NCBI GenBank assembly: GCA_964468245.1
Contig: CAYXTU010000001.1
Coordinates: 1-41,190, forward strand
DNA from: an uncultured Candidatus Peribacteria bacterium
Lineage (GTDB): Bacteria; Patescibacteriota; Gracilibacteria; Absconditabacterales; Absconditicoccaceae
DNA length: 41,190 bases
Direction: 5' to 3'
Part shown: piece after piece, positions 5,227 through 41,190 of the stretch
Numbering within the stretch: the stretch's first letter is position 1
Layout of the letters: every line of letters starts with the position of its first letter
Made by a program: the position numbers and the translations under genes
Notes under the pieces: model-generated
Told to the model about the DNA's origin: nothing
Database searches by the model: none
Seen by the model: the letters and a program-made list of their open reading frames with translations, nothing else

Positions 5227-5457
5227 AAAAAAGACGCTTCGCTGGGCTTACTTTTGACATGACTTCCCGCAGCTTCATGCGGGACAGGCGCCAGTAAGCA
5301 AAAACTCTAGCCAGATGCAAACCCAACAAACTGTCGTTTCACTATAAATGATTGTTTATCTCACCTCACTGTCGCACACATTCGTATGACTCATTTCGGC
5401 TCGAATAGATTGATTGCTTCGAGTATGGGGAGAGTCTTGTCATGCATCTTGCGGGGG
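5227..5457 (-). ncRNA. GC-rich structured island, candidate ncRNA of unidentified class (~230 nt)
   Basis: Non-coding gap between the MFS gene and the coiled-coil gene with strongly elevated GC. Hairpins: cccgca/tgcggg (5265-5282) and ctcgaa/ttcgag (5400-5423). The minus-strand reading ends in a T-run (5227-5232). No convincing ORF in any frame. Confidence 0.35.
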
Positions 5458-6676: not shown

Positions 6677-6690
6677 AAATATTTATAATT

Positions 6691-6741
6691 GATAAATGCT
6701 ACCCGATAAAATGATAAAATGATAAAACGATGAAATGATGA
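6691..6741. repeat. GATAAAATGATAAA-type short tandem repeats
   Basis: Sequence is gataaatgctacccgataaaatgataaaatgataaaacgatgaaatgatgag. Same family as 16107-16160, 21952-22110 and 41133-41190. Sits 15 nt upstream of the MFS start codon. Confidence 0.8.
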
Positions 6742-10417: not shown

Positions 10418-12229
10418 ATGGCTATCAGAAATATTGCTATTATTGCCCATGTCGATCATGGAAAAACCAGTCTTGTCGATAAGTTGCTTACGCAGTCGGG
10501 GACTATGAAAATGGCAGAAGATCAGAATCTTATTATGGATAGTAATGATCAGGAAAGAGAAAGAGGAATCACCATCTATTCCAAAAATACTTCCGTCAAT
10601 TACAAAGGTGATGTTATCAATATTATAGACACTCCGTGACATGCGGACTTTGGAAGTGAAGTGGAAAGGGTATTGAAAATGGTCGATAGCGTGTTATTGC
10701 TCGTTGATGCCTACGAATGACCTATGCCACAGACTAAATTTGTTTTGAAAAAATCTCTAGAACTTGGACTCAAACCGATTGTCGTGATCAACAAAATAGA
10801 CAAAGAAACTGCAAGGCCAACCTGGGTAATCAATCAGTTGTTTGATTTGTTTTTTTCGCTTGGTGCAACTGATGATCAAGCAGATTTTCCTATTATTTAC
10901 TGTAGCGCGAAAGGGGGATATGCGTTTGATGATATGAAGGATTTTGAAGAAGCAAAAGAACATGGAGATATCTTTCCGATTTTTGATTTGATAGAAAAAT
11001 ATGTCCAACCAGCAGCAGATTATTCTGATAAACCTTTTCGTATGCAGGTTGTTAACCTCGGATATGATGATTTCATCGGAAGACTTGGTATTGGAAGAGT
11101 ATATGAATGAACAGCAAAACCATGACAAGAAGTAGTGATTTTTGATAATGAAGGAGTCAAAAGAAAAGGAAAAATTACCAAAATATTTACGACGCTTGGA
11201 ATCTCTAGAGTAGAGACACAGCAGGCGCAATGCGGTGATATCGTGACTATTGCTGGTATCCCAAATATCTATGTAGGAGAAACCGTTGGTGTAGAATGAT
11301 GCGAAGCGTTTGCACCGATCAAGGTCGATGCACCGACATTGACGATGGATTTTTTGGTCAATGATTCGCCATTTGCTGGCAAAGAATGAAAGCTCGTAAC
11401 GTCAAAAAATATCCAAGAAAGATTGCATAAAGAACTCCAAACAAATGTCTGATTGGAAATTAATTTTGAAAAATGAGGAAATAGATTCGCGGTTTCTGGT
11501 AGAGGAGAACTCCACTTGTCCGTGCTTATCGAAACAATGAGAAGAGAGTGATTTGAGTTGCAAGTGTCTGCGCCACAAGTAATTTTCAAAGAAGAGAATG
11601 GTCACAAAACTGAGCCGATAGAACAAGTTATCATCAATGTCGATGAAAAACTTTCGGGAACGATTATCGATATGATCGCGAGAAAAAAATGACAAATGGT
11701 AAATATGTTTACGGTAAATGGAACGTCTACACTAGAATTTGAAGTGCCGACAAGAGGATTGCTCTGATTTAGATGACAGTTTGTCTTGGTGACGAAGGGG
11801 GAGTGAATTATCTACAGTTCGTTTTCTCATTACGCACCGTATAAGGGTGATATTCCCAAGAGAACAACTGGTTCTATGATTAGTCAAGAAAATGGAAAAT
11901 GTATGAAATATAGTATCCGAAAGTTGCAAGAAAGAGGGAAAATTTTCATTCTTCCGCAAGCTGCGATGTACGAATGAATGATTGTCTGAGAGTCTGCAAA
12001 GCCAGGTGATATGACGGTTAATTTGACTAAGAATAAACAACAGACCAATGTCAGAGAAAGTGGAAATGATGAGTCAATGCGATTGGAACCTATCATTCCG
12101 TTGACACTAGAAGACTCGTTGGCATATATTAGTACTGACGAATATGTAGAAATTACTCCAAAAAATATCAGACTCAGAAAAGTATTTCTTACGGATTCTG
12201 AGAGGAAGAAGAATTGAGTGAAAAAATAG
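10418..12229 (+). CDS. typA: translational GTPase TypA/BipA (603 aa)
   Basis: Motifs: [27 protein letters not shown] (TGA 10637-10639), NKIDK. I translated the whole central part (…[20 protein letters not shown]…). I count 16 in-frame TGA. Ends …KKNGVKK then TAG 12227-12229. Confidence 0.95.
12146..12229 (+). repeat. direct repeat, left copy (functional last 28 codons of typA)
   Basis: 79/84 nt identical to 13341-13424. All 5 differences are synonymous (ATT/ATC, ACG/ACT, AAA/AAG twice, TAG/TAA). Confidence 0.9.
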
Positions 12230-13340
12230 AAGACTACGTCTGTAATTACACCTACGGTCGTAATTTTTCTGTTGATTTTTTTGCAAAATTACTTCTTTTC
12301 TTTATACTTTATATTGTCTGTCGGGTTCGTCCCATTTTGCCGGACCAGTCTGATCTGGCACAGACATCAAAACGCTTCGCAATTTCTGCGGAGTTTTTTG
12401 ATTATAGCGAAAGTATATTTTTATTATTGAGTGAAAGTAGTGATTTCATTTGTGTTATTGCTGTTTGATTGAGTATTTGAAGTCTTTCTGATTGGGGTGT
12501 TTTCATTTTGATAAATTGTGCATTCATACTTTCTATATTTGCTAAAATAATTAATTGTTCAATAGTTGCTCCATCTCTTATATTTCATTTTCCATTTTTA
12601 TTTTCATCTCTTCGTTGTTTTGCTGTTTTGCCAAAAAGTGCTTTGTTGAGTATATCTGCCTCATCGGCGTAGATTACATTAATTTCTGTTGGTGAAAGCT
12701 CTTTTGGAATCAAATATTCTTTGATTGAATCTGTATGTATCTTGTAATTTACTTTTGTCAAAAATCTTTTTACATTCCAATCTAATGAGTTTGTTTCTTC
12801 TTGTTTGAGTCTTTGAAACTCTTTGATAAAATATAACCTAAACTCTACTGATATTCGATTGGCAAATTCTAATGCAATATCTTTGTGAGCAAATGTTCCT
12901 CATCCATATTTTCATGATTTACTGATAATGCCTATAGCTCCAGTCTTTTCTATCCATCTTTGGGGAGATAGAACAAAAGAATTGAAGCCTGCTTCGTTTT
13001 TAAACTGGTCGAATTCGACCAGTTTAAAAGTTGGATTATATAGTTGTTCCCAAAGACCTAAAAATGCTATAGTTTCTTTGTTTCTAAGCCAATTTTTTAC
13101 AACATCAGCTGGTAATAAGGGGTTTTTGTATTTGGCTATATCGGTTAGACTAATATAGTCAGCATCACTATTTTGAATGACTTTGATTTGTGTTCATTTC
13201 ACTTCTAAGATCAGAGATTCTGGCATTTTTTCTTGTTCAAGAAATAAAACTTCATATATGTGAAGTATAATTATTTCTTTCTGTATATCAAGATAATTTT
13301 TGACAAACGCTTTTTATTCTTTATAGAACTATCTTTTGTT
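12230..13340. mobile_element. ~1.1-kb single-gene insertion (KilA-N cassette) bounded by duplicated typA 3' ends
   Basis: Lies between the two 84-bp typA-end copies. Contains only the reverse-oriented KilA-N gene plus a structured GC-richer tail (12335-12400). No recombinase gene. Confidence 0.55.
12402..13226 (-). CDS. KilA-N domain-containing protein (274 aa)
   Basis: ATG 13226 to TAA 12404..12402, frame checked triplet by triplet, 4 in-frame TGA. Sequence ISLTDIAKYKN…VVKNWLRNKETIAFLGLWEQLYNPTFK.VEFDQFKNEAGFNSFVLSPQRWIEKTGAIGIISKSGKYGGGTFAHKDIALEFANRISVEFRLYFIKEFQRLK matches, from memory, the widespread phage-associated KilA-N family. Confidence 0.75.
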
Positions 13341-13424
13341 GTAGAAATCACTCCAAAAAATATCAGACTCAGAAAAGTATTTCTTACTGATTCTGAGAGG
13401 AAGAAGAATTGAGTGAAGAAGTAA
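13341..13424 (+). pseudogene. orphaned copy of the typA 3' end (28 codons incl. stop), probably the ancestral end
   Basis: Encodes the same peptide [27 protein letters not shown] as 12146-12229 and is followed directly by a strong terminator. No typA sequence lies upstream of 13341. Confidence 0.8.
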
Positions 13425-13447
13425 AAAAAGCCCGAAAGGGCTTTTTT
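13423..13447. terminator. bidirectional rho-independent terminator
   Basis: aaaaaa-agccc-gaaa-gggct-tttttt: perfect stem flanked by an A-run and a T-run, between convergent typA (relic) and the 59-aa ORF. Confidence 0.8.
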
Positions 13448-14576: not shown

Positions 14577-16106
<1,530 letters not shown>

Positions 16107-16160
16107 AATAAACGATGAAATGATAAATGCTCACTGCGTTCACGATAAAATGATAAATAT
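16107..16160. repeat. GATAAAATGATAAATG-type repeats abutting the proS start codon
   Basis: ataaacgatgaaatgataaatgctcactgcgttcacgataaaatgataaatatg, immediately 5' of the proS ATG (16106..16104) in the gene's orientation. Confidence 0.8.
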
Positions 16161-16230
16161 GTTATTGCAGTATATGAGTTTTTTTATCGAAAAGGGCTGG
16201 ATTATCAAGAGTATTAAACTTAGTTTTTTA

Positions 16231-16298
16231 TCCTCACCCCCTTCCCCCTCTCCTTCAGAGAGGGGTTGCTCCTTCTCTGAAGGAGAAGGTTGGGATGA
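16231..16298. repeat. GC-rich long hairpin element
   Basis: Perfect 13-bp inverted repeat tctccttcagaga (16249-16261) / tctctgaaggaga (16274-16286) inside a C/G-rich stretch, in an otherwise AT-rich intergenic region. Confidence 0.7.
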
Positions 16299-17814: not shown

Positions 17815-20800
17815 TTACAATCTGATTTGCATTTTTGCAAGTGGCTGTTTGACGGCCATTTTGTTTTTTGATCTAATGAAAAGACCAAGAGAGATTATTC
17901 TTCTCACTATTTCTGTTTCTTCAAGTAACTGTTTGTCGATATATTTTTGTGAGTAGAGGGGAAGGTGTTCTAGGTGAATAGAATTTCCTTCTACTTTTCA
18001 TTTTGTAGTAAACTTTTGCAGTTCTAAATAAATATGTTCGCTGACAAATGGTGCGAATGGTGCACATATTTTCATATAGCTTTGTAGTACTTCAAACAAG
18101 GTGTTAAACGCTGATTGTTTATCTTTGTTCATACCTGATGCTCGGAATCTTCTTCTTGATCTTCTGATAAATCGATTATTTAATTTTTCTATAAATCCAA
18201 GTACGAGTTTTGCGCTTGTATCGAGGAAGTATTTATTCAATTCTTGTTCGACTTGAATACCCAAGCTGTGAAGTTCTGCGAGTATTCGTTTGTCCAATTC
18301 GTTGTCTATACTGTAGGTAGGAAGCTTAATTGCTTCGAGTTTGTCGAGTGTGGCTGGTGTGGTGTAGAGTGTCGGTCGTAGTTGTTTGAAATTTACATCG
18401 TGGGAAATAATCAGCATATTTTGTCCTGTTCATTTTTTGATTAATTTCTTGTATACACCTATGGTGTCCATGCTTTCGCCTGATCGTAATTTTTTATCTG
18501 TTTTGATTTTTATTTTTTTGCCTCTATATTCTTTCATGATATTTGCGACTGCTTCTGCCGTCTGGACTGTTCTCAATGCAGGGCTTGCATAAATGATATC
18601 TGGATTGATTCTCAAAACATTTTCGATGAATTTTGGATCTTTCATCGCTTGGATTCCTTCTTCTGCTAATGGGTGATCAACTAGTTGTCCATTGGCTTTT
18701 GCGTGTCTCATAAAATACAATGTTGTGTTGTCCGTAGTCCATTTGTCTACGTTCGCATAGGTCTCGAAAAATTTGTATCCATTCATGATTGAAGCCGTGA
18801 AGTCTTTGTATATTTGTTCTACTCATTTCTCTGAAAATCTTACTCCTTCTGCTTTTACTCATGGCGAAGAGAGGAGGTAGAGTCTGTACGCGTCCGTTCC
18901 ATATTTTGAAAATAAATATTCTGGATCTGGATAATTCTTCAATTTTTTTGACATTTTCTTTCCGTCTTCCGCAAGGACGAGACCATTGATAATGACGTTG
19001 TTGAATGAGTTTTGTTTCATGATAGCATTGCCTACTACATGCATTCCTCTAAATCGACCTCTGGTTTGATCCAATCATTCCATAATGAAATCTGCAGGGT
19101 AAATTAATTTAGAATTCAAAATTCAGAATTCAGAATTTTCTTTTCCTGTATATCCTGCCTGTCAAAATGGCATAGAGCCTGATTCAAATCGACAATCCAT
19201 AACTTCTGGGATTCTACGATATTCTTTATTTCATTTTTTGAATCGATAGGTATCTACGTATGGTTTGTGAAGATCCATTTCCCTGTTTCTGTCGTTGTCT
19301 CGGTAGCGAATAGTTATCTGTCCGTTTTTTGGAGAATAATCATATTTTTTTGTCAGATAATCAAAATCTTTGAATGTTTTTTGTATCAAAATAACGGAGT
19401 CTTTGTGTGTTATGGTGACGATTGTTTTTGTTGCAAATTTTTCGTTCACTTCGAGTGTATATGCTTTGCATCTAGCAATTACTTCATCTATAGATTCTCA
19501 TTCGTTTGAAAGTTTTGTATTTGTTGGTCTGTTTATGGTAAGATTAGCTGTCCAGATTTTGTCTTGAAGCTCAGGTATGATAATGTCTGTCGTTCTGAAG
19601 TCTACATAAAGTCTTTCATTGATTTGGAAGAGATTCTGTTTCGAAGTATCCTGGATATAGGATTGGATTTCTTTTTTGTTTCGAAGGTCCTGATATATTT
19701 TTTGGATGTCTTGATATTTTTTTTGAATATCTGCAATGCTGTCGGGAAATTTCTTTTCCAAAAAAGGAAGCACAGTTTGGAGTGATCTTTCTAGCGGTGT
19801 GATAATAATCACTCGATCATCTTTTTTGAGAGAAGCAAGATATTTACTTACTATTTTCGCTTGTTTCAAACCGTTTTTATTAAGCTGTGTTTTGCTGAAA
19901 CTATCGTGCATATGTGTTTCATTGTATACCGTTTCTCCGTGTCTGATGATAACATTTTTGGTTAAGTTTTGTGACCCGGTTCTTGTTCATTGATAGATTT
20001 CTTCTAGTGTTCCTGCTACGATAATGTCTTCTGGTTTTTTTGTATTTTCCCAGATAGGTAGTGGAGATCATCGATATCTATTTCTTGCAAGATTCCAATC
20101 TGGTGCAGATTTTAGTACATCAGTAAATCTTTTTTTGACCGTTTCTGGTATAAATCATATTTTCTCTGCGTTGGGTACGGTTATTTTTGTGAGTTCTTGC
20201 TCTTTGATAAACCAGCTTGTAAGCGCTTTGGAAATCAATGGTGTATCACATCTTCGGCAGTGTGGATAGGAGTGTTCGTATGATCTTTGTCCGATAAGTT
20301 TTCCTTCGTCTTTGAGTCTTTGGATGATGTCTTTGTTGGCGTCGTAGACTCTCGTACCTTTTCGTTCTGGCACCTCGTCGGTGAATTCACCGTAGTCGTT
20401 TACTGGCAAGAAAAGCCAGTTTTTGCTGTCGTCTCTTGGCAAAAATTGTGCCACGGCATTGTAATCTTCCATACCAAACGCTGGTGCAATGTGGACGATA
20501 CCTGTTCCATCTTCGGTGCTGACAAATTCTCCTGCTATGATTTTGAAAAATTGTTCTTTGTATTTTTTATCGATTTTACTGTTGTTGATATATTGGAACA
20601 GTGGCTCGTATTTTAGTCCAACCAGCCCTTCTCCTTGTATAGTTTTGATGAGAATATATTCGTCAGGATTTCTATAATATTGTTTCAAAAGATTTTCTGC
20701 TATGACAAAATATTCCTTCATTGTTGGATCGTAGACTACGCTGTAACGAATATGATTTCCTATAGCAAGAAACATATTGCTTGGTAATGTCCATGGTGTG

Positions 20801-21951
20801 GTGGTTCGCGCTAATGCACTTACTTTTGCGTTTGGATCTGTATGTTCATATATCTTCTTTTGGTAGAGATAGAGATCATAAAATTGACTCATAATCTCCA
20901 TATCATCATCGACGATGGTATTTTCTATTTTCACAGCAAATCCCAATGCATTGTCTGATGGTATGATTTCTGCTCGTACCATTTGTGGTAATTTTTCTGG
21001 CTCCATGAGTTTTGGTTCTCCTTCTATCTCTATTTCAAACATATTGAGATTAAATAATCCTCCACGTAATATTTGTTTTACGCTTCCTAATGCTTTTATT
21101 GTTTTTACTTCAACTCCCAATTCTTCTGAAATTTCTTTTTTGACTGTTCATTCAAGCGTGTCTCCTTTTTCTACCTTGCCTCCTGGACAAAGATATTTTT
21201 GAGCTTTGACACTATAATTCATAAAAATCCTTCCATCACGTTTTATGATGCAATCTACGATTTCTACGAATCCGTCTGGAGTCATTTCGTATTGATCGAA
21301 ATTGAAGTTCCATTGATTGTTTATTCTATCTCGAAGAAGTGGAAACTTTATCGTAATCGCTGGATCTTGTCTGTCTTTGTATCCATCGTTGACCTCTGCA
21401 TTGGAAAGTGATGTTGCGCAGCTTGGACACATCCACTGAATATTAAATCACTTGTAGACTAAGTTCTGATTGTACATATTTTGAATTATTCGTATTACAG
21501 ATTCCATAAAATCTAGGTTCATCGTATAATATGCATGATCCATATCTGCCCATCTTCCAATTCGATCTCCGAATGTTCTTCGTTCATCACTAGTATTACT
21601 TACATATTTTCTACATTCTTCTACGAAATTTTCTATACCGATTTTGTTTTCTATATCTTTTTTACCATCGATTCAGAGTTTTTGCTCTACGGCTTTTTCT
21701 ACCGGCAAACCGTGACAATCTCGTCATCGGTCTCTATTTACCTTGTATCATTTCATTGTTTTGTATCTGAGGATAGTATCTTTCATCGATCCAACTAATC
21801 CATGTCCAAAATGAGGTGTCCCTGAAGCAAATGGAGGACCGTCATAGGTGACAGATTGAAATTTTTCTGAACGTTGTTCGAGGGATTTCTCGAAAATTTT
21901 ATTTTCCTTCCAATATGCGTTGAGATCTTGGATGAATTCTTTTTGAGACAT
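17815..21951 (-). CDS. ileS: isoleucyl-tRNA synthetase with three in-frame domain insertions (1378 aa)
   Basis: Eight track ORFs (21748..21951 through 17998..18417) are all in the same frame. Every gap was translated and contains only TGA (about 17 in total). Motifs: GTPHFGHGL (HIGH), RTTTPWTLPSN, YPHCRRCDTPL, DCRFESGSMPF, GLDQTRGRF, KMSKKLKNYPDP. True stop is TAA 17817..17815. Confidence 0.9.
18310..18738 (-). other. second, SixA-like histidine-phosphatase domain inserted in the IleRS anticodon-binding region (~140 aa)
   Basis: Lies between …FFETYANVDKW and IDNELDKRILAEL…. TLYFMRHAKANGQ, …LAEEGIQAM…, YASPALRTVQTAE, MLIISHDVN. Confidence 0.6.
19279..19956 (-). other. histidine-phosphatase (PGM/cofactor-dependent mutase fold) domain inserted in IleRS (~225 aa)
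   Basis: Lies between …PIWENTKKPEDIIVAGTLEEIYQ… and MDLHKPYVDTYRF…. NVIIRHGETVYNE (RHG catalytic His), …LNKNGLKQAKIVSKYL…, …IIITPLERSLQT…, and a second His in TIVTITHKDSVILI. Confidence 0.65.
20845..21336 (-). other. Nudix-like domain inserted in the IleRS editing-domain entry (~160 aa)
   Basis: Lies between …DPAITIKFPLL and …ARTTTPWTLPSN. PGGKVEKGDTLE-G-TVKKEISEELGVEV aligns position for position with the MutT Nudix box GGKIEMGETPEQAVVRELQEEVGI, with E to D and R to K substitutions. Confidence 0.65.
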
Positions 21952-22190
21952 GATAAAACGACTAAACGATAAAAGCTCACTATGTTCGCGATAAAATGAT
22001 AAATGCTGCGCGATAAATGCTCACTATGTTCGCGATAAAATGATAAATGCTGCGCGATAAAATGATAAATGCTGCGCGATAAAATGATAAATACCCTTTG
22101 GGCGATAAAATGATGTTTTTTATCGATTTATCTTTTTATCATCCGCGAAAGCGGATTTTTATCATTTGGGTTTCGTAGTTGAATAGTGAA
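21952..22190. repeat. array of ~22-bp tandem repeats (GATAAAATGATAAATGCTGCGC and variants) plus inverted copies, abutting the ileS start codon
   Basis: About 7 head-to-tail units from 21952 to about 22110 (three of them identical). These are followed by ttatcgatttatctttttatcatccgcgaaagcggatttttatcatt, which contains reverse-oriented units and an atccgc-gaaa-gcggat hairpin. Confidence 0.85.
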
Positions 22191-27507: not shown

Positions 27508-28995
27508 TTATCCCAACAACTTTTCAAAAATTTCTTGTGCGGTTTTTGGATTGGTCTTACCTCATGTTTTCTTCATTAATTGTCCGATAAAGAATCAGAT
27601 TGTTGTAGTTTTTCCGTCTTTGTACTGTTGGACTATTGTAGGATTTTCTTTGAGGATTTGCTTCGCGATAAGCTCTATTTCGTTGCTATCGATAGCTGGT
27701 GCATCGAATCATTTTTCTTTGATAATTTCTGATGGATTTTTTCCTGTAGACAGCATCTCTTGCATGACTACTTTGAGTTGATTTTCTATAAGATTTCCTG
27801 CTTGAGCATTGGTTAAAAATTCAATGAATGTGTCTTGATTGAAGGGGAGTTCGTTGATGGTTTTGAAGTGTTCATTGAGTCGCGCTGCTATAGGTCAAGA
27901 GATTCGTTTGGCTATGAGCTTAGTATCAAATCCTCCTTCGTTTCCTTTTAAATCCTCCGTCCCTGTCGGGACACATCCTTTAGCAAAGGAGGACAAAACT
28001 GTCATAAAGTAATTAAGTATGTCTTTATCGCTAATTAAAGCGTTGATGTATTCTTTGTTGAAGCCGTAATCTTGGCTAAATTGTTTGATGATTTCGTGAG
28101 GGATAATTATGGTTTGTTCGTCTAATCGTTTAAATGTTTCATCAGTCAAATGTAATGGAGGAAGATCGGGTTCTGGAAAATATCTGTAGTCGAGGGCATC
28201 CTCTTTGGATCTCATCAGATAAGATTCTCCTTTGGTGTCATCTCGTCCTCTGGTTTGTTGTTCAAACGTTTCACCTGCTGCATATAATGCTTCTTGTCTG
28301 GCTTTTTCGTGTTCAATCGCTCTTTTGATCATACCAAATGAATTGATGTTTTTGATTTCTGCTCTTGTGCCGTAAGGATCGTTTTCTGAGTTTCTGAGTG
28401 AGATGTTTACGTCGACTCTCATCTGTCCTTTTTCTAAATCTGCGTCTGCTATGTCGTTGAATCTAACTATTCTTTGGAGTTCTTTCAAAAATTCTACTAC
28501 TTCTTCTACGCTTCTAAAGTCTGGTAGTGTCACTATTTCTACGAGTGGTGTTCCTGCACGATTGAAGTCGAGAAGTGCTTCTCCTCAGGCGTGAATCATC
28601 TTGCCCGTATCGCATTCCATGTGTGCATCTTGGATGTGGACTGTTTTTTCTGTTGTATAATTATCAAGAAAAAAATTTACTTTTCCTTCCGTATTTGTCG
28701 GATGATAGAGCTGAGTAATCTGGTATCCCATAGGCAAATCTGGGTAGAAATATGATTTTCTATCGAAGCTAGAGATCTCATTTATTTTACAGTTCAATGC
28801 TTTTCCGAGTAATAATGCTTTGTCCAAAACTTCCTGACTCAAGGTCGGAAGCGCTCCTGGTTGTCCTGTACAGACGGGACAAATATGTGTGTTTGGCAAA
28901 AGTGCATCGAAATTTTGTTCATTTGGACACTGGCAAAACATCTTATTTACTGATTTTAGTTTTATATGAATCTCGAGACCGATGGTGAGTAACAT
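27508..28995 (-). CDS. gatB: Asp/Glu-tRNA amidotransferase subunit B (495 aa)
   Basis: Motifs: MLLTIGLEIHIKL, KMFCQCPN, ICPVCTGQPGALP, SFDRKSYFYPDLPMGYQITQ, LDFNRAGTPLVEIV, MRVDVNISL, EIKNINSF. C-terminal YqeY-like part reads …GFFIGQLMKKT-G-GK.NP. All pieces share one frame and are joined by TGA; stop TAA 27510..27508. Start at ATG 28995 is uncertain (alternative TTG 29010). Confidence 0.9.
27927..27993. repeat. GC-rich palindromic element translated inside gatB
   Basis: caaatcctccttcgtttcc…aaaggagga: 8-bp terminal inverted repeat tcctcctt/aaggagga, with first 19 nt 18/19 identical to 39728-39746. Encodes …FAKGCVPTGTEDLKGNEGGFD… in gatB (antisense orientation of the element). Confidence 0.65.
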
Positions 28996-29132: not shown

Positions 29133-32100
29133 CTATGGGTTGAGGAGTGTTTTGAGGAGAGGATTAATAATGTTTCTTGTTGTTGGTCCAAGATATCCTG
29201 CTCAGGTGTCGTCTTTGTCTGTTATAATGCTGTTGTTGAGTTGAAATTGGAAGAGTGCAGCTATCGTTGCGGAGGTGTTTATGCCGTTGATTGTTCCGGT
29301 AAAATATTTTTGTGATTTGAGAAAGTACTGGAGATATTTTACTCCAATGTCGCTATCTCCCGCTGTGTATCCTGCACTGAATTGATAATTTTTATTTAGG
29401 TTTTGTAAGAATTGTATTTCTGCGCTTGTTGTTTGTGTCGTTGTGCTTGTTGTTTTTTTTGCTGGTACAAATACTTTTGTTCCTCGAAGAGAGGTGAAAT
29501 TGAGATAAGAACTTTTTGTTATAGCTTTGTCGGATCTCATCATCATAAGCATTACATATCCTCTAAGTTCTCGATTGAATGGTTTGTCTTTTTTGGTAAT
29601 GATTTGTTTTTCAAATAGTGCATCCAAATGTTTTTGGTATCGATTTTGTCCTCCGTTGTAGGTGTCTCCTCGTAATGCTCTAGAAAGTGTTGTCCCAAAT
29701 ATTGCTCTATTTACTTGTCCGTTGGGATTAAATTTGTCTGCTGGTGTTCCATTGGTTTTGAGTCCCATAAGTCCAAGCTGACATGCTTTGATTGCATAGG
29801 ATTGAAATTCTTGTGTTTCATTTTGCATATCCGAAAATACACATTTTCTTGTGGTATTTGGTGTCTGTCCCAAAATATTTATTGCGTATTCTGACATCAT
29901 TTTGGATAGGTGAGATCTGATTAATATTCCTGTCATATTTGCATAATTGATGTCAGTAACAGTAGTTATTTTAGCATTGTATCCATAGAAATATGCGTCA
30001 GTGAGTTCTTTGTTGAACGGTGATGAAAATGTTTTTCGTGTTCCTGTGTTGGTCGCTATTATGGTTCCTGTAGCAATTATTCCTGTACTTGCTTCTATTT
30101 TTGTCGGATCTTTGCAGAGTCCATCATTAGGATTTCATGAATAATCACCATCTACACATACATCAGTTCCACATGATTTTGCTAGGTTTCCTCATTGACA
30201 AGAGACACCAGATTTTTTTGCATATAGACCATTTGTACATACTAATTGACTATCTGTACAGGTAGAAATCATACTTCATCCTCCTCAACCTCCTCAACCT
30301 CCACCACCTGATGGTGCAGAATAATTTATGGTAAAGCTTGGGATGGTTAGTCGTGATGAGCTATTTCCTGCGACGTCAGTAACTTGGACTTTGCAGGTAG
30401 AATAGGTCGCATTTGCTAAGGTGAAGGTCGTTGTGTTTCTTCACGAAATAGCAGTTGTTAGTGATCCATTTCCACAAGATCATGAATAGCTTACCGTTCC
30501 TGCTTCGTCTCCCGTAAAACTAAACGTCGCTGTACTATTTGAAACGCTTGGTGCAGATCATGTAAGTATTGGTGCTGTGGTATCTCGTATAAATTGCATT
30601 GTCCCTGTTGTTGTGTTGTTGGCATTGTCTTTGACGAGTACTTGTACTATATATGTTCATTCTGTGCTAGCGCTTGCTGTGGGATCTTGTAGGGTTGCTG
30701 TGGTAAATGTTATAGTTCCTGGTCCAGATACTTTGGATCGTGTGTATCACGAAATCCCTGAAACATCTCCATTTACGGTGATGTCTATTCCTGTTGTAGC
30801 ATTTACTCTTTTGTCTGCTGGCATAGTAACTATTGGCGCTGTCTTATCTATTTTGTACATTTGTACTCATGTTTTTACATTACCTGCTTTGTCTTGTACG
30901 CAAGCGTATATGTATCACGTTCCATCAGCTGTCAATACTGGGACTGTTGTCGATCATCCGTTGCAATATTCATCAAATTGAACATCGGTTCTATAGAGTA
31001 CTCCCGTAGATCGAATGCCGGCAAGCGTGTCTCATGATGTTGTGGTTCCTGTGGCATTATAATTTCTTCGATTGGTATTTGTATCGGTAAAAGTGATTGT
31101 CGGTTTGGTTGAATCAACGATAAAGTCTGTTGTTTGTACATATGGACTTGTCAATCATCACTTGTCTTGGTATTTTATACCAAGTCTTATAGTGCTTGAA
31201 TTTGTACTTGTGCTTGGTGTTCGTAAATAAGAAAAGGCTCCATCTCCTAATGTTGCGATAGTAGTAAAACTTCCTCATGTAGATCGTTCTAATATTTTCG
31301 CAGAAAGATTATTATCTCATCATCATGTTCGTGTAACCCAATATCCACTTCATCATTTTAAAAATTCTCATCATGTAGGATAAATAAATGTTGGACTTGT
31401 TGGTGGTGTGCTATCTATTTTAAATTGGTTTCCTGTAAATATTGCTGTATTGCCTGCAAGATCAGTTGCAATTATTCTGATTTGTGCTGATGAGGTGTCT
31501 ATGGAATTTACTGTTCGTGATAAGTTTCAGTTGTTGTTTGTTCATGTTGTTATGATCGAGGTATATGATCATCCCAAAAATCCGTTATTGGAAAATTCTA
31601 TCCTGATGGGTGTCAGTCAAAAATTTATTTCTGTTCATGTGTTTCGTGTAATGTTGTATGTGTTTGCTGTTTGCCAATAATTTGTGATTGTTGGACTCGT
31701 GATGCTTATTCCAGCTGGTGCGGTCTTGTCGATAATAAATATTGCTCCTGTAGAGTTTCCAGCTTTGTCAGTCACGATAAATGTTTTTATTCCGTCTGTA
31801 CTTATTGGCGTTCATGATGTATATGCTGTACCATTTATTGTCGCTCCAGAAATATTGGTATCATTAAAGGTAATTGTTTGATTGCTATTGTAGTAGATTC
31901 ATGAAAGTACGCCTGTTCGTGTTGGCATAGTTTTGTCTATGGTGAAGGTAGCTCATGTAGTGTTACCTGCAAGATCGGTTATGATACATATATATGTTCC
32001 TTCTGTAGAAAATATTGTCCCACTACTAAATGGACTTCCGTTTATTGTTGCTCATGATATATTCGTATCGGTAAATGTTATAGTGATGTTTCATGATATA

Positions 32101-33551
32101 TATGTTCATGATGTTGTTCATGCCCATGTTGGTTGTGTTTTGTCTATAGTGAAGGTAGTTCATGTAACATTTCCCGCTTTGTCCTGTATGATAAGTGTAT
32201 ATATTCCATCTGTAGTAATAGCTGTTCCGCTTGTATATGCTGTTCCGTTGAGTGTTGCTCATGAGTAATGTGTTTCTGTAATGCTTGGTGTTATGTTTCC
32301 ACTATAATACGTGCCGCTGATAATGTTATTTATTGTTGGTTGCGTTTTGTCTATCGTAAATATTGCTCCTGTAGCATTACCCGCAAGATCAGTAACTATG
32401 AGTATATGGGTTCCTTCGTTTGCTATAGTGTCTCAGCTTGAAATACTTGTGCCATCTATTGTTGCATTATCGCTGAAAGTAATCGTTACATTACCAGAAT
32501 AATGTGTTCATGATAGTACTCCTGTAAAGGTAGGTGCGGTTTTGTCGATAGTGAATGTCACTGCGGTTGTATTGTTTGCAAGATCAGTAACAATAAGTTC
32601 GTAGGTTGTTTCACCAGTTATTTGTGTACCGGGAATATATTCCGCTCCGTTGAGTGTCGCTCAGGAAAAATTTGTTTCATTAATTGCTGGAGTGATATTT
32701 CCACTAAAATAATTTCCACTACTAATATTGTTTACCGCTGGTGGTATCGTATCTATAGTAAATATTGCTCCTGTAATATTTCCTGCTCCATCAATTACGA
32801 TCAAGGTATATATTCCGTCTGTACTCAGAGTATCTCAACTATTTATTGGTGTTCCATTTATTGTTCCTGTGTCGCTGAAGGTGAGGGTTACGTTACCAGA
32901 ATAATATGCTCATGATAGTACTCCTGCAAAGGTAGGTGTGGTTTTGTCGATAATAAATATTGCTCCGGTAGTATTACCTACAGTATCTACAACAATGAAT
33001 TCATAGCTTCATTCAGTGGAAATCACCTCTCAGCTTGTGTAAGCCGCGCCATTTAGCGTTGCTCAAGAAAGATTTGTATCATCAAAGGTAATTGCTATGT
33101 CTCCAGAATATATCGTTCATGAAGTCACTCCGTTGAATGTTGGTATTGTTATATCGAGTAGTGTAGTCGCGGTAATTTCTCAGGTAATAAGATTTAGTCA
33201 TGAGTCGAAAATACTTCATGATAATATAATTGCTCATTCACTTAGTGATGATGCGTTGAAATTTATCGTGATAGTTGTTTCATTTTCTCCTGTACTTGTA
33301 TGTGTTTGAGAAATTGTATTTACACTTGTATCGATAAGCTCCATTACGACTATATCACCAGAATCAAGTGTCCCACTAAATTGCATGGTTACATCGTAAT
33401 TTGCGACATTAGCAATGTTTATGTTTGCTCCAGTGATAGAATTTCCTATGGAATCTACCGTTGCTCACACGATATTTTTTACTAGAAATGTCGTCGAGAT
33501 ACATACCACAAAAAAAAGTGTACCAAAGATTCTTTTCTTTTGATGGAGCAT
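29133..33551 (-). CDS. giant repeat-rich cell-surface protein with C-terminal peptidoglycan-binding domain (1472 aa)
   Basis: Frame from ATG 33551 to TAG 29135..29133 walked triplet by triplet: no TAA/TAG and roughly 50 in-frame TGA. Signal/TM segment MLHQKKRIFGTLFFVVCISTTFLV. At least 8 tandem ~70-aa units of type SG.YYSGN.T.TF.D…ING…S.G.Y.LIVTD.AGN.TGA.FTIDKT.P. An 11-Gly linker. Cys-rich segment. C-terminal GDSDIGVKYLQYFLKSQKYFTGTINGINTSATIAALFQFQ (PG_binding_1-like). Confidence 0.85.
31390..33160 (-). repeat. tandem ~210-nt coding repeats (Ig-like modules) within the surface protein gene
   Basis: Recurring …AGN(T/A)TGA(I/T)FTIDKT(A/Q/T)P(T)… boundaries, seen 8-9 times in my translation. 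Boundaries are approximate. Confidence 0.6.
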
Positions 33552-33702
33552 GGTTGTTTTTTTGTTTCAAAATAAAATTTCTCTATATATAGTAATATCT
33601 TTTCTGAAAACAATTTTTCTTTTGGACTCGAGGACTACGAAACTCTTGTATTTATCTTTTTTATTTGATAATATATTGATTTTTCTCTGCTTTTGTGTAT
33701 AT

Positions 33703-34074
33703 ATGGGTAAACAAAAAATAAAAAAAATGAAAAAGAAAAAAAAATTTTTTATATCTCTGTATGATTTTGCAGAGGTATTTAAACAACCAGGCATCATAAT
33801 CGTTTGTGTTGTGTCGTTATTTATTTTTATAAATCTAGTTTATTTCAAATTTTTTCCCACATACAAAACAGATTTGCTTTTGTATGCCAGTGTTCTCCTT
33901 TTTGTCTATATTTCTAACGTCTTTTTGTTTTATGTCTCTTTTTCATCTTATTTGTACTATAGAACTAGAGGCATTCGTTATAGCTATCGCATAATTAAGT
34001 ATGTTTTGCTGTCATGTTTGTTTTATCTGATAGCAATTATTATAATTGTGTTTGTATATTTTTATACGAAATAA
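33703..34074 (+). CDS. small membrane protein (123 aa)
   Basis: ATG 33703 (MGKQKIKKMKKKKKFF…) followed by three hydrophobic segments. Uninterrupted to TAA. The longer 33550 start overlaps the surface-gene start and looks non-coding. Confidence 0.4.
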   Translation: MGKQKIKKMKKKKKFFISLYDFAEVFKQPGIIIVCVVSLFIFINLVYFKFFPTYKTDLLLYASVLLFVYISNVFLFYVSFSSYLYYRTRGIRYSYRIIKYVLLSCLFYLIAIIIIVFVYFYTK

Positions 34075-35683: not shown

Positions 35684-35779
35684 TACGTCATTCCCGACCT
35701 GATCGGAAATTCAACCTGCCTGCCGCAGACAAGTTGGCTATGTAGCAATATGAATTCCCGCTTTCGCGGGAATGACGTA
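35684..35779. repeat. GC-rich palindromic intergenic element
   Basis: Terminal 13-nt arms tacgtcattcccg (35684-35696) and cgggaatgacgta (35767-35779) pair. There is an inner ttcccgc-tttc-gcgggaa hairpin. The TTCCCGC…GCGGGAA word recurs at 5263-5283 and 14640-14656, with a weaker ATCCGC…GCGGAT version at about 22150. Confidence 0.7.
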
Positions 35780-38256: not shown

Positions 38257-40032
38257 ATGTTGTATCTCAAAGTCACTAATCTTGCTAAATCTTTTACGTC
38301 CAAGGTCCTGGTTGATCATGTAGATTTCACTATTTCTAGATGACAAAAAATTGCCTTAGTGGCAAAGAATGGTGCAGGGAAGTCTACTTTACTCAAGGTT
38401 ATTATGAAAGAGATAGATCTGAGTGATTGAGCGATTGAGTGGAGAGAGTGAATCCGTATCTGATATCTTTCGCAGGACACTCGTTTGGATGAGCAGAAAA
38501 CTGTTCGTGAATTTCTTTTTGATTTTGATACCACGCAGTTTTGGGAGCAGGACGTTGAATTGAATATTGCTATCAATAAGTTGCGTATAACGTCGTATTT
38601 GGATCAGAATATTTGATCTTTGTCGTGATGAGAAAAAAAACGTGTAGCATTGACCAAGACCTTGATGGGTAATCCAGAAATGTTAATTCTTGATGAACCG
38701 ACCAATCATTTGGATTTGGATATGATAGAATGGCTTGAACGATATCTCAAAGATCACCGCATTACTTTGCTCATGGTGACGCATGATAGATATTTTTTGG
38801 AAAGGATTTGTACGCATATATTTGAACTTCATAGAGGTAAAATTGTTGTATTCCCTGGAAATTATTCGTACTATTTGGAGAGTAAAGCTATCCGTGAAGA
38901 AAACGAAAAAATCGAAGTCCATAAGCTCAAACAACTCTATAGAAAAGAATTGAGTTGGATCAAAAAATCACCTAGTGGAAGACAGACGAAGTCCAATTCT
39001 AGGGCGAGTAGGTTTGATGAGATCAATGATCGTTATGAGGTTTTGAAGGATACAGTGTTTGATGAAACTGCAAAGCTTACCTTGTCTGTCCAGTCAAGAC
39101 AGTTATGAGGAAAAATTCTCAAACTCAAACATATTCAAAAACTATTTTGAGAGAAAAAAATTCTGAATGATTTTTCGCATGAATTTAGACACAACGAACG
39201 TATCGGTATTATCGGAAAAAATGGAGTAGGGAAGTCTACGTTTGTACGTATGCTTATCGGTGAAGAACCGATAGATTCGTGAACAGTACAAACAGGCGAG
39301 ACTGTTGTTTTTGGGCATTATCAGCAAAAAGAAATTCATTTTCCTAGTGACAAAAGAGTCTCTGATATTGTGCATGATCGTAAACTGCTTGAACAATTTC
39401 TTTTTCCACCAAGTCAGCAACATGTCTTTGCAGAAAATTTAAGCGGAGGAGAGAAGAGGAGACTACATATGCTAACTATTTTGCAAACGCGTCCAAATTT
39501 TTTGATTCTCGATGAGCCGACCAATGATTTAGATCTTGTTACCGTCGGGGTACTCGAAGATTTTTTGATGACCTACAAGGGCTGTTTGATTGTGATTTCT
39601 CATGATAGATTTTTTATGGACAAGATTACTGATCACTTGTTTATTTTTGAAGGTGATGGAGTAGTGAAGGATTTTTGGGGAACGTATAACGAGTATAAAC
39701 TCGCAGTTGAAAGTTGAAAGTCGCAAACAAATCCCCCTTCGTTTCCCCTCTCGGCTTCCGAGGACTTCGCTTCGCTCGCTTTATCAAGGGGGTCATCAGT
39801 TGTGGATGTTGAAGGCAAGCAAAAACTATCATATATGGAAAAGCGTGAATTGGATCAGTTGAGTAAAGATATTGTGTTGTTGGAAAAAGAAAGGGATGAA
39901 ATCAATCGTATTTTTGATCAGCCAGATGTGTCGTATGATGATGTGAAGGCTTTATCGGAGGCATTGTGAATTATCTTGCGTCAGCTTGAACAAAAGGAGT
40001 ATAGATGGTTTGAATTGAGTTCGAGAGAATAG
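38257..40032 (+). CDS. ABC-F family ATPase, Uup-like with C-terminal coiled coil (591 aa)
   Basis: NBD1: VAKNGAGKSTLL, LS-G-G-EKKR, LILDEPTNHLD. NBD2: IGKNGVGKSTF, LSGGEKRR, LILDEPTNDLD. C-terminal part reads …KRELDQLSKDIVLLEKERDEI…. One frame from ATG 38257 to TAG 40030-40032. Confidence 0.88.
39728..39792. repeat. GC-rich palindromic element translated inside the ABC-F gene
   Basis: caaatcccccttcgtttcc…caaggggg: terminal inverted repeat ccccctt/aaggggg. Same 5' 19-mer as the gatB element but in the opposite orientation relative to the host gene. Encodes …TNPPSFPLSASEDFASLALSRGSS… between NBD2 and the C-terminal coil. Confidence 0.65.
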
Positions 40033-40573: not shown

Positions 40574-41128
40574 ATGTCCAAAAAAAAATGAATATCGCTG
40601 ATGTTTATCGACACGGAAACTACCTGACTTTCGACGACGGATCAAATTCTACAATTTGCTGCCATATATGGTCATTTTGATGGGAAAGATTTTCATGAAG
40701 AAACAAGAATCAATCAATATATCAATATCACTACAAAAATTAATTTTTTTGCTCAAAGAGTACATGGAATCAGCAAAAATATGTTGGAACCGTATGAATA
40801 TATGGATGCGTATATAGATCATTTTCTTGCTTATGTAGATACATCTGACTATATCGTTGGACATAATATTTCGTTTGATATCAGGATGTTGAGACAAGAT
40901 TGTGAAAGGATTTGAATACTTCGTGACTGGGATAGTTGTAAGACGTTTTGTACGATGAAAGATATCGGACATATTGAAGATCTCCCCAAGAAAAGACCAA
41001 AATTGTGACTTTTGTACGAATATTTATTTGAAAAAGATTTTGCTAACGCGCATGATGCGATGGCAGATATTGAGGCTACGAAGGATTGTTTTTTGGAGCT
41101 GGCGAGGAGAGGACATATAAAAATTTAG
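40574..41128 (+). CDS. DEDDh 3'-5' exonuclease (DNA polymerase III epsilon-like, 184 aa)
   Basis: MSKKK-G-ISLMFIDTETTG (ExoI), YIVGHNISFD (ExoII), FANAHDAMADIEAT (ExoIII, H-x4-D). The frame differs from track ORF 40480..40680. Stop TAG 41126-41128. Confidence 0.85.
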
Positions 41129-41132
41129 AGAA

Positions 41133-41190
41133 AAATGATAAAATGATAAAAGCTACGCGATAAAATGATAAAAGCTACGCGATAAAATGA
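41133..41190. repeat. GATAAAATGATAAAAGCTACGC tandem repeats (run continues past the right edge)
   Basis: At least two perfect 22-bp units plus partial units. Same family as 21952-22110. Confidence 0.85.

Follow-up and report, generated by a model that had tools for sequence, protein, structure and literature searches.

A Small GC-Rich Hairpin Repeat Family Lying in Frame within gatB, an ABC-F Gene and Other Genes of Absconditabacteria

Introduction

Rickettsia palindromic elements (RPEs) are dispersed palindromic repeats of a small AT-rich genome, where they lie in frame within housekeeping genes unrelated to one another, at places that the protein fold can accommodate, and no transposase is associated with them (PMC10969869). 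Here, a 41,190-nt stretch of DNA from an uncultured Candidatus Peribacteria bacterium of the Absconditabacterales (GenBank assembly GCA_964468245.1, contig CAYXTU010000001.1, positions 1 to 41,190 of the forward strand) was analyzed, and this whole stretch is referred to as the window. Two related blocks in the window, one in gatB and the other in a Uup-like ABC-F gene, had been compared to RPEs in a preliminary description. These blocks are probably two copies of a dispersed hairpin repeat family that was non-coding by origin, was spread by a process supplied in trans and was kept where the reading frame and the protein loop tolerated it.

Other classes of small structured repeats are also relevant. 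Repetitive extragenic palindromic sequences (REPs) are extragenic by definition and have the head GTAG or CGTC. The ends of IS200/IS605 elements carry a subterminal hairpin a few bases from each end. Two further examples, the GC clusters of yeast mitochondria and the Magnusiomyces "byp" elements, are mobile palindromic clusters, rich in GC, within a genome that is itself very AT-rich; some of them are situated in protein genes, and byps are skipped by the ribosome. The small dispersed repeats (SDRs) of cyanobacteria, described by Elhai and colleagues in 2008, are reportedly far below 100 nt in length, often form hairpins, nest in one another and enter conserved sequence without target duplication. 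REPINs are short palindromes that occur as singles and as inverted doublets, likewise with no target duplication (PMC3116915). In the literature on repeats of Absconditabacteria or Gracilibacteria, and on the head sequence of the elements reported here, no description of these elements was found.

Results

Two Copies of the Repeat in the Window

The 19-mer CAAATCCYCCTTCGTTTCC was found at two sites in the window, 27927 and 39728, both on the plus strand, and the two copies differed by one C/T. No third site was detected in the window with up to three mismatches, and at that tolerance no match occurred in 100 shuffles of the window. Since both copies were on the plus strand, the element was antisense in gatB and sense in the ABC-F gene. 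The gatB copy encoded SSFAKGCVPTGTEDLKGNEGGF, the gatB frame over the block under genetic code 25 being ...SSFAKGCVPTGTEDLKGNEGGFD...; the ABC-F copy encoded TNPPSFPLSASEDFASLALSRG, and its antisense reading was ...RGNEGGFV. Rereading of the window and code-25 translation thus agreed with the preliminary description in the sequence of the block at 27927–27993, the 18/19 identity, the in-frame position in opposite orientations and the peptides, including RGNEGGFV.

The GC content of the window was ~34% (standard deviation 7% over 50-nt windows), and its long genes were readable only with TGA as a sense codon. The gatB gene (27508..28995, minus strand, 495 aa) contained five in-frame TGA codons under code 25 and matched the Pfam families GatB_N and GatB_Yqey. 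The ABC-F gene (38257..40032, plus strand, 591 aa) contained 12 and matched two ABC domains as well as ABC_tran_Xtn and ABC_tran_CTD. Orthologues had glycine at the single in-frame TGA position that was checked (RISGPIAA), which fits code 25 and supports the recoded stop codon proposed earlier. The nearest GatB proteins with a named source were labelled Absconditabacterales or candidate division SR1.

The gatB copy was a composite long form of 67 nt (27927..27993, plus strand). It began with an A-type head, CAAATCCTCCTTCGTTTCC (27927..27945, plus strand; positions 1–19 of the nhmmer model), which was followed by a second, nested complete unit (27950..27993, plus strand) consisting of the head AAATCCTCC (27950–27958), the internal hairpin GTCCCTGTCGGGAC (27959–27972) and the terminal hairpin TCCTTTAGCAAAGGAGGA (27976–27993). 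The layout of this nested unit recurred at four other loci (L025:5-50, L026:6865-6912, L058:6752, and L081:1167; L and P numbers denote collected loci and proteins). The inverted arms TCCTCCTT (27931–27938) and AAGGAGGA (27986–27993) paired in the fold. The 8-bp inverted repeats noted earlier were therefore present, but they were subterminal rather than terminal, because the 5′ arm began at the fifth base. Likewise, the 67-nt block was present, but it did not mark the family boundary: the consensus ran 8 nt beyond the hairpin, and this 8-nt tail was degenerate in the gatB copy.

The ABC-F copy was a 65-nt long form followed by the 8-nt tail TCATCAGT (39728..39800, plus strand; tail 39793–39800). 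In this copy a 30-nt module with its own hairpin replaced the inner 5′ arm; the internal hairpin module was TCTCGGCTTCCGAGGAC (39749..39765, plus strand). The 65-nt form was shared with two other loci (L005 and L091). Over 70 nt, the ABC-F copy was ~91% identical to a copy in the comEC gene of another genome (L005), with dissimilar flanks. A further gene (L091) contained the same form, which was also recognized by its peptide, KANEVKSSEAGKGNEG, in a GatB protein of another lineage (P0051).

The gatB copy had a GC content of 48% and the ABC-F copy one of 58%, and only the latter was among the GC peaks of the window. When the folds were compared with shuffles, the gatB copy was clearly better on either strand (z ~ −3) and the ABC-F copy was no better (z = −0.3). 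An nhmmer profile of the family detected no additional decayed copies over the window, and tRNA, tmRNA and Rfam scans of the window gave no match (Rfam at the gathering score). Two other identities of the 19-mer were rejected. It did not fit a tRNA 3′ end or attachment (att) site, as the T-loop context was wrong and no tRNA genes were present, and with two copies in 41 kb its density appeared too low for a DNA uptake sequence.

Family Census and Anatomy

When one genome per species was scanned for the 19-mer, 28 loci were obtained, and about a dozen of them belonged to low-GC metagenome-assembled genomes (MAGs) labelled Gracilibacteria or "Peribacteria." In all of these MAG loci, the 19-mer was followed by the same hairpin, CAAATCCYCCTTCGTTTCCYCCTTTATCAAGGRGG, which was not demanded by the search pattern. 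The remaining matches came from unrelated taxa, lacked the hairpin and looked like chance. A metagenome scan, whose pattern had one N position and many of whose listed matches were an unrelated gut gene, contributed ~30 further copies on contigs of 31–41% GC. The non-redundant total was 41 copies on low-GC Absconditabacteria- or Gracilibacteria-like contigs, and all copies of candidate phyla radiation (CPR) origin in this census were found via the 19-mer. The 19-mer was thus not confined to the two sites in the window, and it recurred with the same downstream hairpin.

In the basic unit, a short variable middle (TTCGTTT) separated the head CAAATCCNCC from a 7-bp GC-rich hairpin (CCNCCTT-TATC-AAGGNGG), which was followed by an 8-nt tail (nYTTyAGT). 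In the information profile of the flanks, the left edge was sharp at CAAATCC, with no conservation further left. The right edge lay 8 nt past the hairpin, where G at +7 and T at +8 were each conserved in 35 of 39 copies and none was conserved beyond. With these edges, the basic unit measured 43 nt. Expanded forms of 48–67 nt carried extra small GC hairpin modules beside the hairpin or in its loop; in other long forms, modules of 18, 21, or 27 nt were placed within the hairpin loop. Bystander units in the same loci, which had not been selected by the 19-mer, shared the head and the terminal hairpin and differed in the middle, which was typically a small GC hairpin; they included the four loci with the nested layout named above.

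Among the distinct short forms, stem pairing was found in 92% of the cells. Paired changes occurred at two stem positions, one from C-G to U-A and the other from U-A to C-G, and the covariation score was 0.225 against a shuffled mean of 0.151, a value reached by none of 500 shuffles. At one locus (L113), two copies 540 nt apart differed only at three mutually pairing positions, with C, C, G in one and T, T, A in the other. These patterns in the aligned copies suggested that the hairpin may have been maintained by paired changes, although only a few subfamilies were involved.

Host Genes and Reading Frames

Twenty-nine of the 41 copies were deep inside open reading frames (ORFs) of at least 250 aa. 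They belonged to at least 14 unrelated host families, for example GatB, ABC-F, ComEC, UvrC, TrmD, a glycosyltransferase-like protein and a cell-wall-binding protein, and one uvrC gene contained two related units. The in-frame position inside protein genes, in both orientations, was thus a general property of the family, as the preliminary description had proposed from the two window copies. Counted by site, ~10 copies were antisense and five were sense. Four reading frames were used (LDKGGNEGGF, PLIKGETKGDL, NPPSFPPLSRG, and KSPFVSPFIKG); five of the six frames of the unit were open, and the peptides were rich in Gly, Pro and Lys. Judging from these open frames, the inserts are presumably translated.

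Some copies were intergenic, and these were often tail-to-tail inverted doublets with a second unit type. Doublets were found at L011, L027, L035, L085, L112, and L048.

Filled and Empty Alleles

The insert in gatB was located in a helical region between the GatB_N and GatB_Yqey matches. Among 120 GatB orthologues, many were empty at this site (YF..KE|FDPK), others had an insert of 9–11 residues and others one of at least 20 residues. Many GatB lineages had a degenerate peptide of equal length, such as HCKEWNDEAILW, which might represent decay of the element. In a neighbor-joining tree of GatB, empty, short and long states were interleaved, and filled and empty alleles occurred as sisters. This implied repeated gain, loss or replacement at the site. 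The distant GatB structures of Aquifex and Thermotoga (3h0l and 3al0) also showed a gap across the insert in the alignment.

In the ABC-F protein, the insert was situated in a hypervariable linker that joins the second ABC domain to the C-terminal coiled coil. An orthologue with 98% identity had the same element, one with 85% identity had a short form (NPPSILPLSRG), and in most orthologues the linker was an unrelated K/E-rich sequence.

Structure models were consistent with the surface-loop position anticipated in the preliminary description. In the AlphaFold model of a GatB orthologue with a 21-residue form at the same site (P0004), the insert was at the tip between helices 326–342 and 355–377, and this tip held the only stretch of the model with a predicted local distance difference test (pLDDT) score below 50. 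In the model of an ABC-F orthologue (P0121), pLDDT was below 50 over residues 492–520, which included the insert. Both inserts are thus predicted to be in exposed loops or linkers.

At the DNA level, the filled allele exceeded the empty allele by 30 nt in gatB (L154 vs. L155) and in TrmD (L138 vs. L025). The empty alleles already had a CAAA-like and T-rich sequence at the junction, so the ends of the unit may be target determinants or short homology arms. Separately, an rve-type integrase gene was present near the empty-site gatB allele (L155:4066-5037), with no evident link to the repeats.

Relatives in Other Bacteria and Phages

A bacterial contig of 67% GC contained an intergenic head-to-head doublet with the same head, the CPR-type spacer TTCGTTT and a similar hairpin (L048:4260-4370). 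It was located between a TetR-like gene and a small convergent ORF, and TetR and RtcB genes were nearby.

When viral contigs were scanned with only the hairpin as the pattern, there were two matches that also had CAAATCCCCC a few bases upstream, although the pattern had not demanded it. The general pattern CAAATCCCCC-N3-9-CCCCCTT-N3-5-AAGGGGG then had 103 matches on 79 viral contigs (IMG/VR) with GC contents of 43–72%; by a rough estimate, the chance expectation for this pattern, with its 24 fixed bases, was well below one. In 30 of the 103 viral copies, and in doublets, GGGGGAT was found within 35 nt downstream of the CAAATCCCCC-headed unit. We read this motif as an inverted copy of the head, that is, a symmetric outer arm that would make the element a two-tier palindrome. 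Several viral copies were in frame: in portal proteins of the Mu-like type, in GemA, and in the linker that joins the two terminase domains. Homologues lacked the segment. One contig carried a tandem array of the general form (L234). Two closely related phage contigs provided a clean filled and empty pair with a difference of 44 nt, just upstream of a small gene (L216:3410-3457 vs. L188:~376); there was no target duplication, and the empty site had no CAAA.

Because the same architecture occurred in contigs of 43–72% GC and in phage genes, the element class was not restricted to the CPR. The CPR-type 19-mer was absent from the viral contigs scanned, 12 viral loci with relatives had no Rfam match, and the hairpin matches in plasmid and phage records were all insignificant. 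A blastn search for the host of two viral loci (L159 and L160) returned no match.

Other Features of the Window and Related Genomes

A palindrome of 60% GC was found at 16226–16295 (CTCCTTCAGAGA...TCTCTGAAGGAG, with CACCCCCTTCCCCC just before it), with an ORF for a small membrane protein on one side and the start of proS (16106, minus strand) on the other. This palindrome was unrelated in sequence to the family in gatB and the ABC-F gene, and it had no relatives among the collected loci. Further GC-rich islands (56–62% GC over 50 nt) at 373–450, 5233–5318, 12314–12369, and 35689–35742 matched neither a tRNA or tmRNA nor an Rfam family. Tandem AT-rich units of 22 nt (GATAAAATGATAAATGCTGCGC and variants) were located between long ORFs at 6690–6726, 16091–16157, 21956–22109, and 41115–41190, the largest array comprising ~5 units. 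An 87-nt direct repeat with 94% identity was present at 12145–12231 and 13340–13426, spaced by 1195 nt.

Two further observations concerned long ORFs on the minus strand. The ORF at 29136–33839 (1568 aa) contained diverged repeats at 31446–33094 with a period of ~207 nt and 60–80% identity, which suggests a tandem-domain protein. The isoleucyl-tRNA synthetase-like ORF at 17818–22023 (1402 aa) had orthologues (L029:18507-21458 and L032:15650-16020) in which precomputed Pfam matches placed His_Phos_1 inside tRNA-synt_1, one of them also with NUDIX.

A second GC-rich palindromic repeat family, GGATTCCGGCCGCAA...GCCGGAATGA(G/C)GT, read as GFRPQ..PEG, was detected at L005 (three copies), L013, L016, L069, L075/L103, and L122. 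It was in frame in ComEC and intergenic in related genomes, and it was absent from the window.

Discussion

How could a repeat of 43 nt come to lie within so many genes? The copies have apparently moved, and a hairpin-directed mechanism would be in keeping with their anatomy. The units would have spread, now or at an earlier time, by a process supplied in trans that recognized the hairpin and the head. Its nearest analogues would be the systems, based on single-stranded hairpins, that underlie REP/REPIN and IS200/IS605 derivatives; the unit ends might alternatively act as microhomology arms for recombination. Insertion would take place without target duplication. Frame-keeping insertions in exposed loops and linkers would be tolerated, because five of the six frames are open and the peptides are rich in Gly, Pro and Lys, and they could then be inherited, remodelled by nested modules or slowly degraded.

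Several observations weigh against spread of this kind. Every CPR copy was ascertained via the 19-mer, so the copy density and the sequence conservation are biased. At the two CPR sites with filled and empty alleles, the net gain of 30 nt falls short of the 43-nt unit, which leaves the ends without a clean definition there. Target duplications of at least 3 nt were not found at the junctions beyond the permutation expectation, and single CPR units end in CAAATCC and AGT, with no terminal inverted repeat. By sequence inspection, without a Pfam scan, no transposase or other enzyme was seen beside seven intergenic doublets, whose neighbors looked like housekeeping genes. The orientation relative to GC skew was weakly biased (27 of 40), with copies that are not independent. 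Copies at orthologous sites could also be old and vertically inherited.

The spread in trans proposed above might belong to a wider picture. It is possible, and proposed here tentatively, that the window copies are the CPR branch of a hitherto unrecognized cross-phylum superfamily of elements of ~45 nt, which have the head CAAATCCCCC and the stem C5TT(T)/(A)AAG5 and in many cases also a symmetric GGGGGATTTG arm. Such elements would be moved by a hairpin-directed enzyme of the cell or of a phage, and would routinely write Gly/Pro-rich loops of 10–23 residues into essential proteins, whether these are the GatB and UvrC of Absconditabacteria or the portal protein and terminase of Mu-like phages. 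If this is true, few known mobile DNAs would be smaller, and the elements would be a general source from which proteins acquire loop insertions.

Two further explanations of the family deserve attention. The first is that the hairpins are selected cis-elements, such as a protein-binding RNA or DNA structure, a stop for antisense or read-through transcription, or a stabilizer of mRNA, whose spread reflects recruitment and not selfish mobility. The compensatory changes in the stem agree with this, as does the fact that the C5/G5 stem and the head CAAATCCCCC are retained over a GC range from 32% (genomes) to 72% (contigs). Doublets occupied short operon spacers, for example between the genes for the alpha and beta parts of an oxidoreductase (L027) and between two genes that run in the same direction (L011); T runs followed several copies (L015, L024, and L026a); and among orthologues, the 3′ part of the element was somewhat better conserved than the flanks (0.71–0.96 vs. 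0.51–0.85). However, many close GatB orthologues had no element at all and others had decayed with the hairpin gone. The element was found in either orientation, in four frames and in unrelated genes, the ABC-F copy folded no better than its shuffles, and no Rfam family was matched. Function alone also leaves the identical 65-nt forms in unrelated genes unexplained. We consider selection for a cis-element unlikely; a function of the hairpin would still be compatible with mobility.

The second explanation is that the GC-rich units are foreign DNA from hosts or phages, since Absconditabacteria take up DNA and live on bacteria, and that their copies were homogenized by gene conversion instead of transposition. 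The element GC content of 48–60% in a genome of 34% GC would suit such an origin, and so would the head, spacer TTCGTTT and hairpin shared with the 67% GC contig and the frequency of relatives on viral contigs. Short and various long forms replaced one another at individual orthologous sites, and ComEC itself carries the element. On the other hand, the CPR-type 19-mer did not occur on the viral contigs, and the plasmid and phage records lacked significant matches. Moreover, gene conversion presupposes a first insertion at every one of the 14 or more sites, and for these the model offers no explanation. Foreign origin with gene conversion is the more improbable of these two explanations. That the inserts are a protein-level feature, namely a favored short Gly-rich linker peptide that arose by convergence or by duplication of a coding segment, is highly improbable: the peptides are loop-friendly and located in linkers, but one and the same DNA gives unrelated peptides through four reading frames and from either strand, nucleotide identity covers synonymous positions and intergenic copies exist, so the multiple frames and the intergenic copies already contradict it.

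A dispersed hairpin repeat of this kind has consequences for how these genomes are read. Hardly any gene is dispensable in the minimal genomes of Absconditabacteria, yet their core translation, repair and DNA-uptake proteins carry repeat-derived inserts. Essential proteins can thus be reshaped by very small repeats with no visible transposase, and, judging from two modelled proteins, the inserts show which loops and linkers can tolerate an insertion. Pipelines for annotation and phylogenomics should be prepared for GC-rich inserts without homology in the marker genes of Absconditabacteria. With the same architecture present in phage packaging genes and in high-GC bacteria, one must ask which enzyme moves elements so small, and the conserved head and stem offer a handle for phylogenetic profiling and biochemistry.

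[quoted passage not shown] In our elements, CAAA is situated 13 nt 5′ of the hairpin and the end lies 8 nt 3′ of it, each unit has one hairpin, and the empty phage site had no CAAA. In contrast to MITEs, the single units have no terminal inverted repeats, cause no target duplication and are several-fold smaller. No parent insertion sequence was found in the contigs examined.

The elements here also resemble REPs and REPINs. Both are short GC-rich imperfect palindromes with a conserved 5′ head (here CAAATCC) and, here, a 7-bp stem, and they occur as singles and inverted doublets with no target duplication. REPs co-occur with a gene, often flanked by the repeats, for the REP-associated tyrosine transposase (RAYT), a Y1 transposase; no RAYT was seen in the contigs examined, which were parts of genomes. 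Unlike REPs, most of the elements here are inside genes (29 of 41 in ORFs of at least 250 aa), and their head is CAAATCC.

The GC clusters and byps belong to a eukaryote organelle, whereas the elements here are bacterial, and every copy is an open multiple of three. Ordinary translation is therefore a simpler reading than skipping of the byp type. The SDRs of cyanobacteria, which differ in lineage and sequence, may be the closest precedent known to us for elements so small and nested.

Like RPEs, the elements here are dispersed palindromic repeats in frame in unrelated genes, with at least 14 host families, four frames and both orientations, and no transposase was seen. RPEs are ~100–150 bp long and form about ten families in Rickettsia, whereas the present elements measure 43 nt (48–67 nt when expanded) and occur in Absconditabacteria; the two are set apart here by size and lineage, not by sequence comparison. 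Unlike RPEs, the elements here consist of a head, one hairpin and a tail, grow by nesting of hairpins, form REPIN-like doublets and have relatives in other phyla and in phages. The comparison made in the preliminary description therefore stands as an analogy of behavior and not as membership: the family appears RPE-like in its conduct, but it is much smaller, modular and not specific to the CPR.

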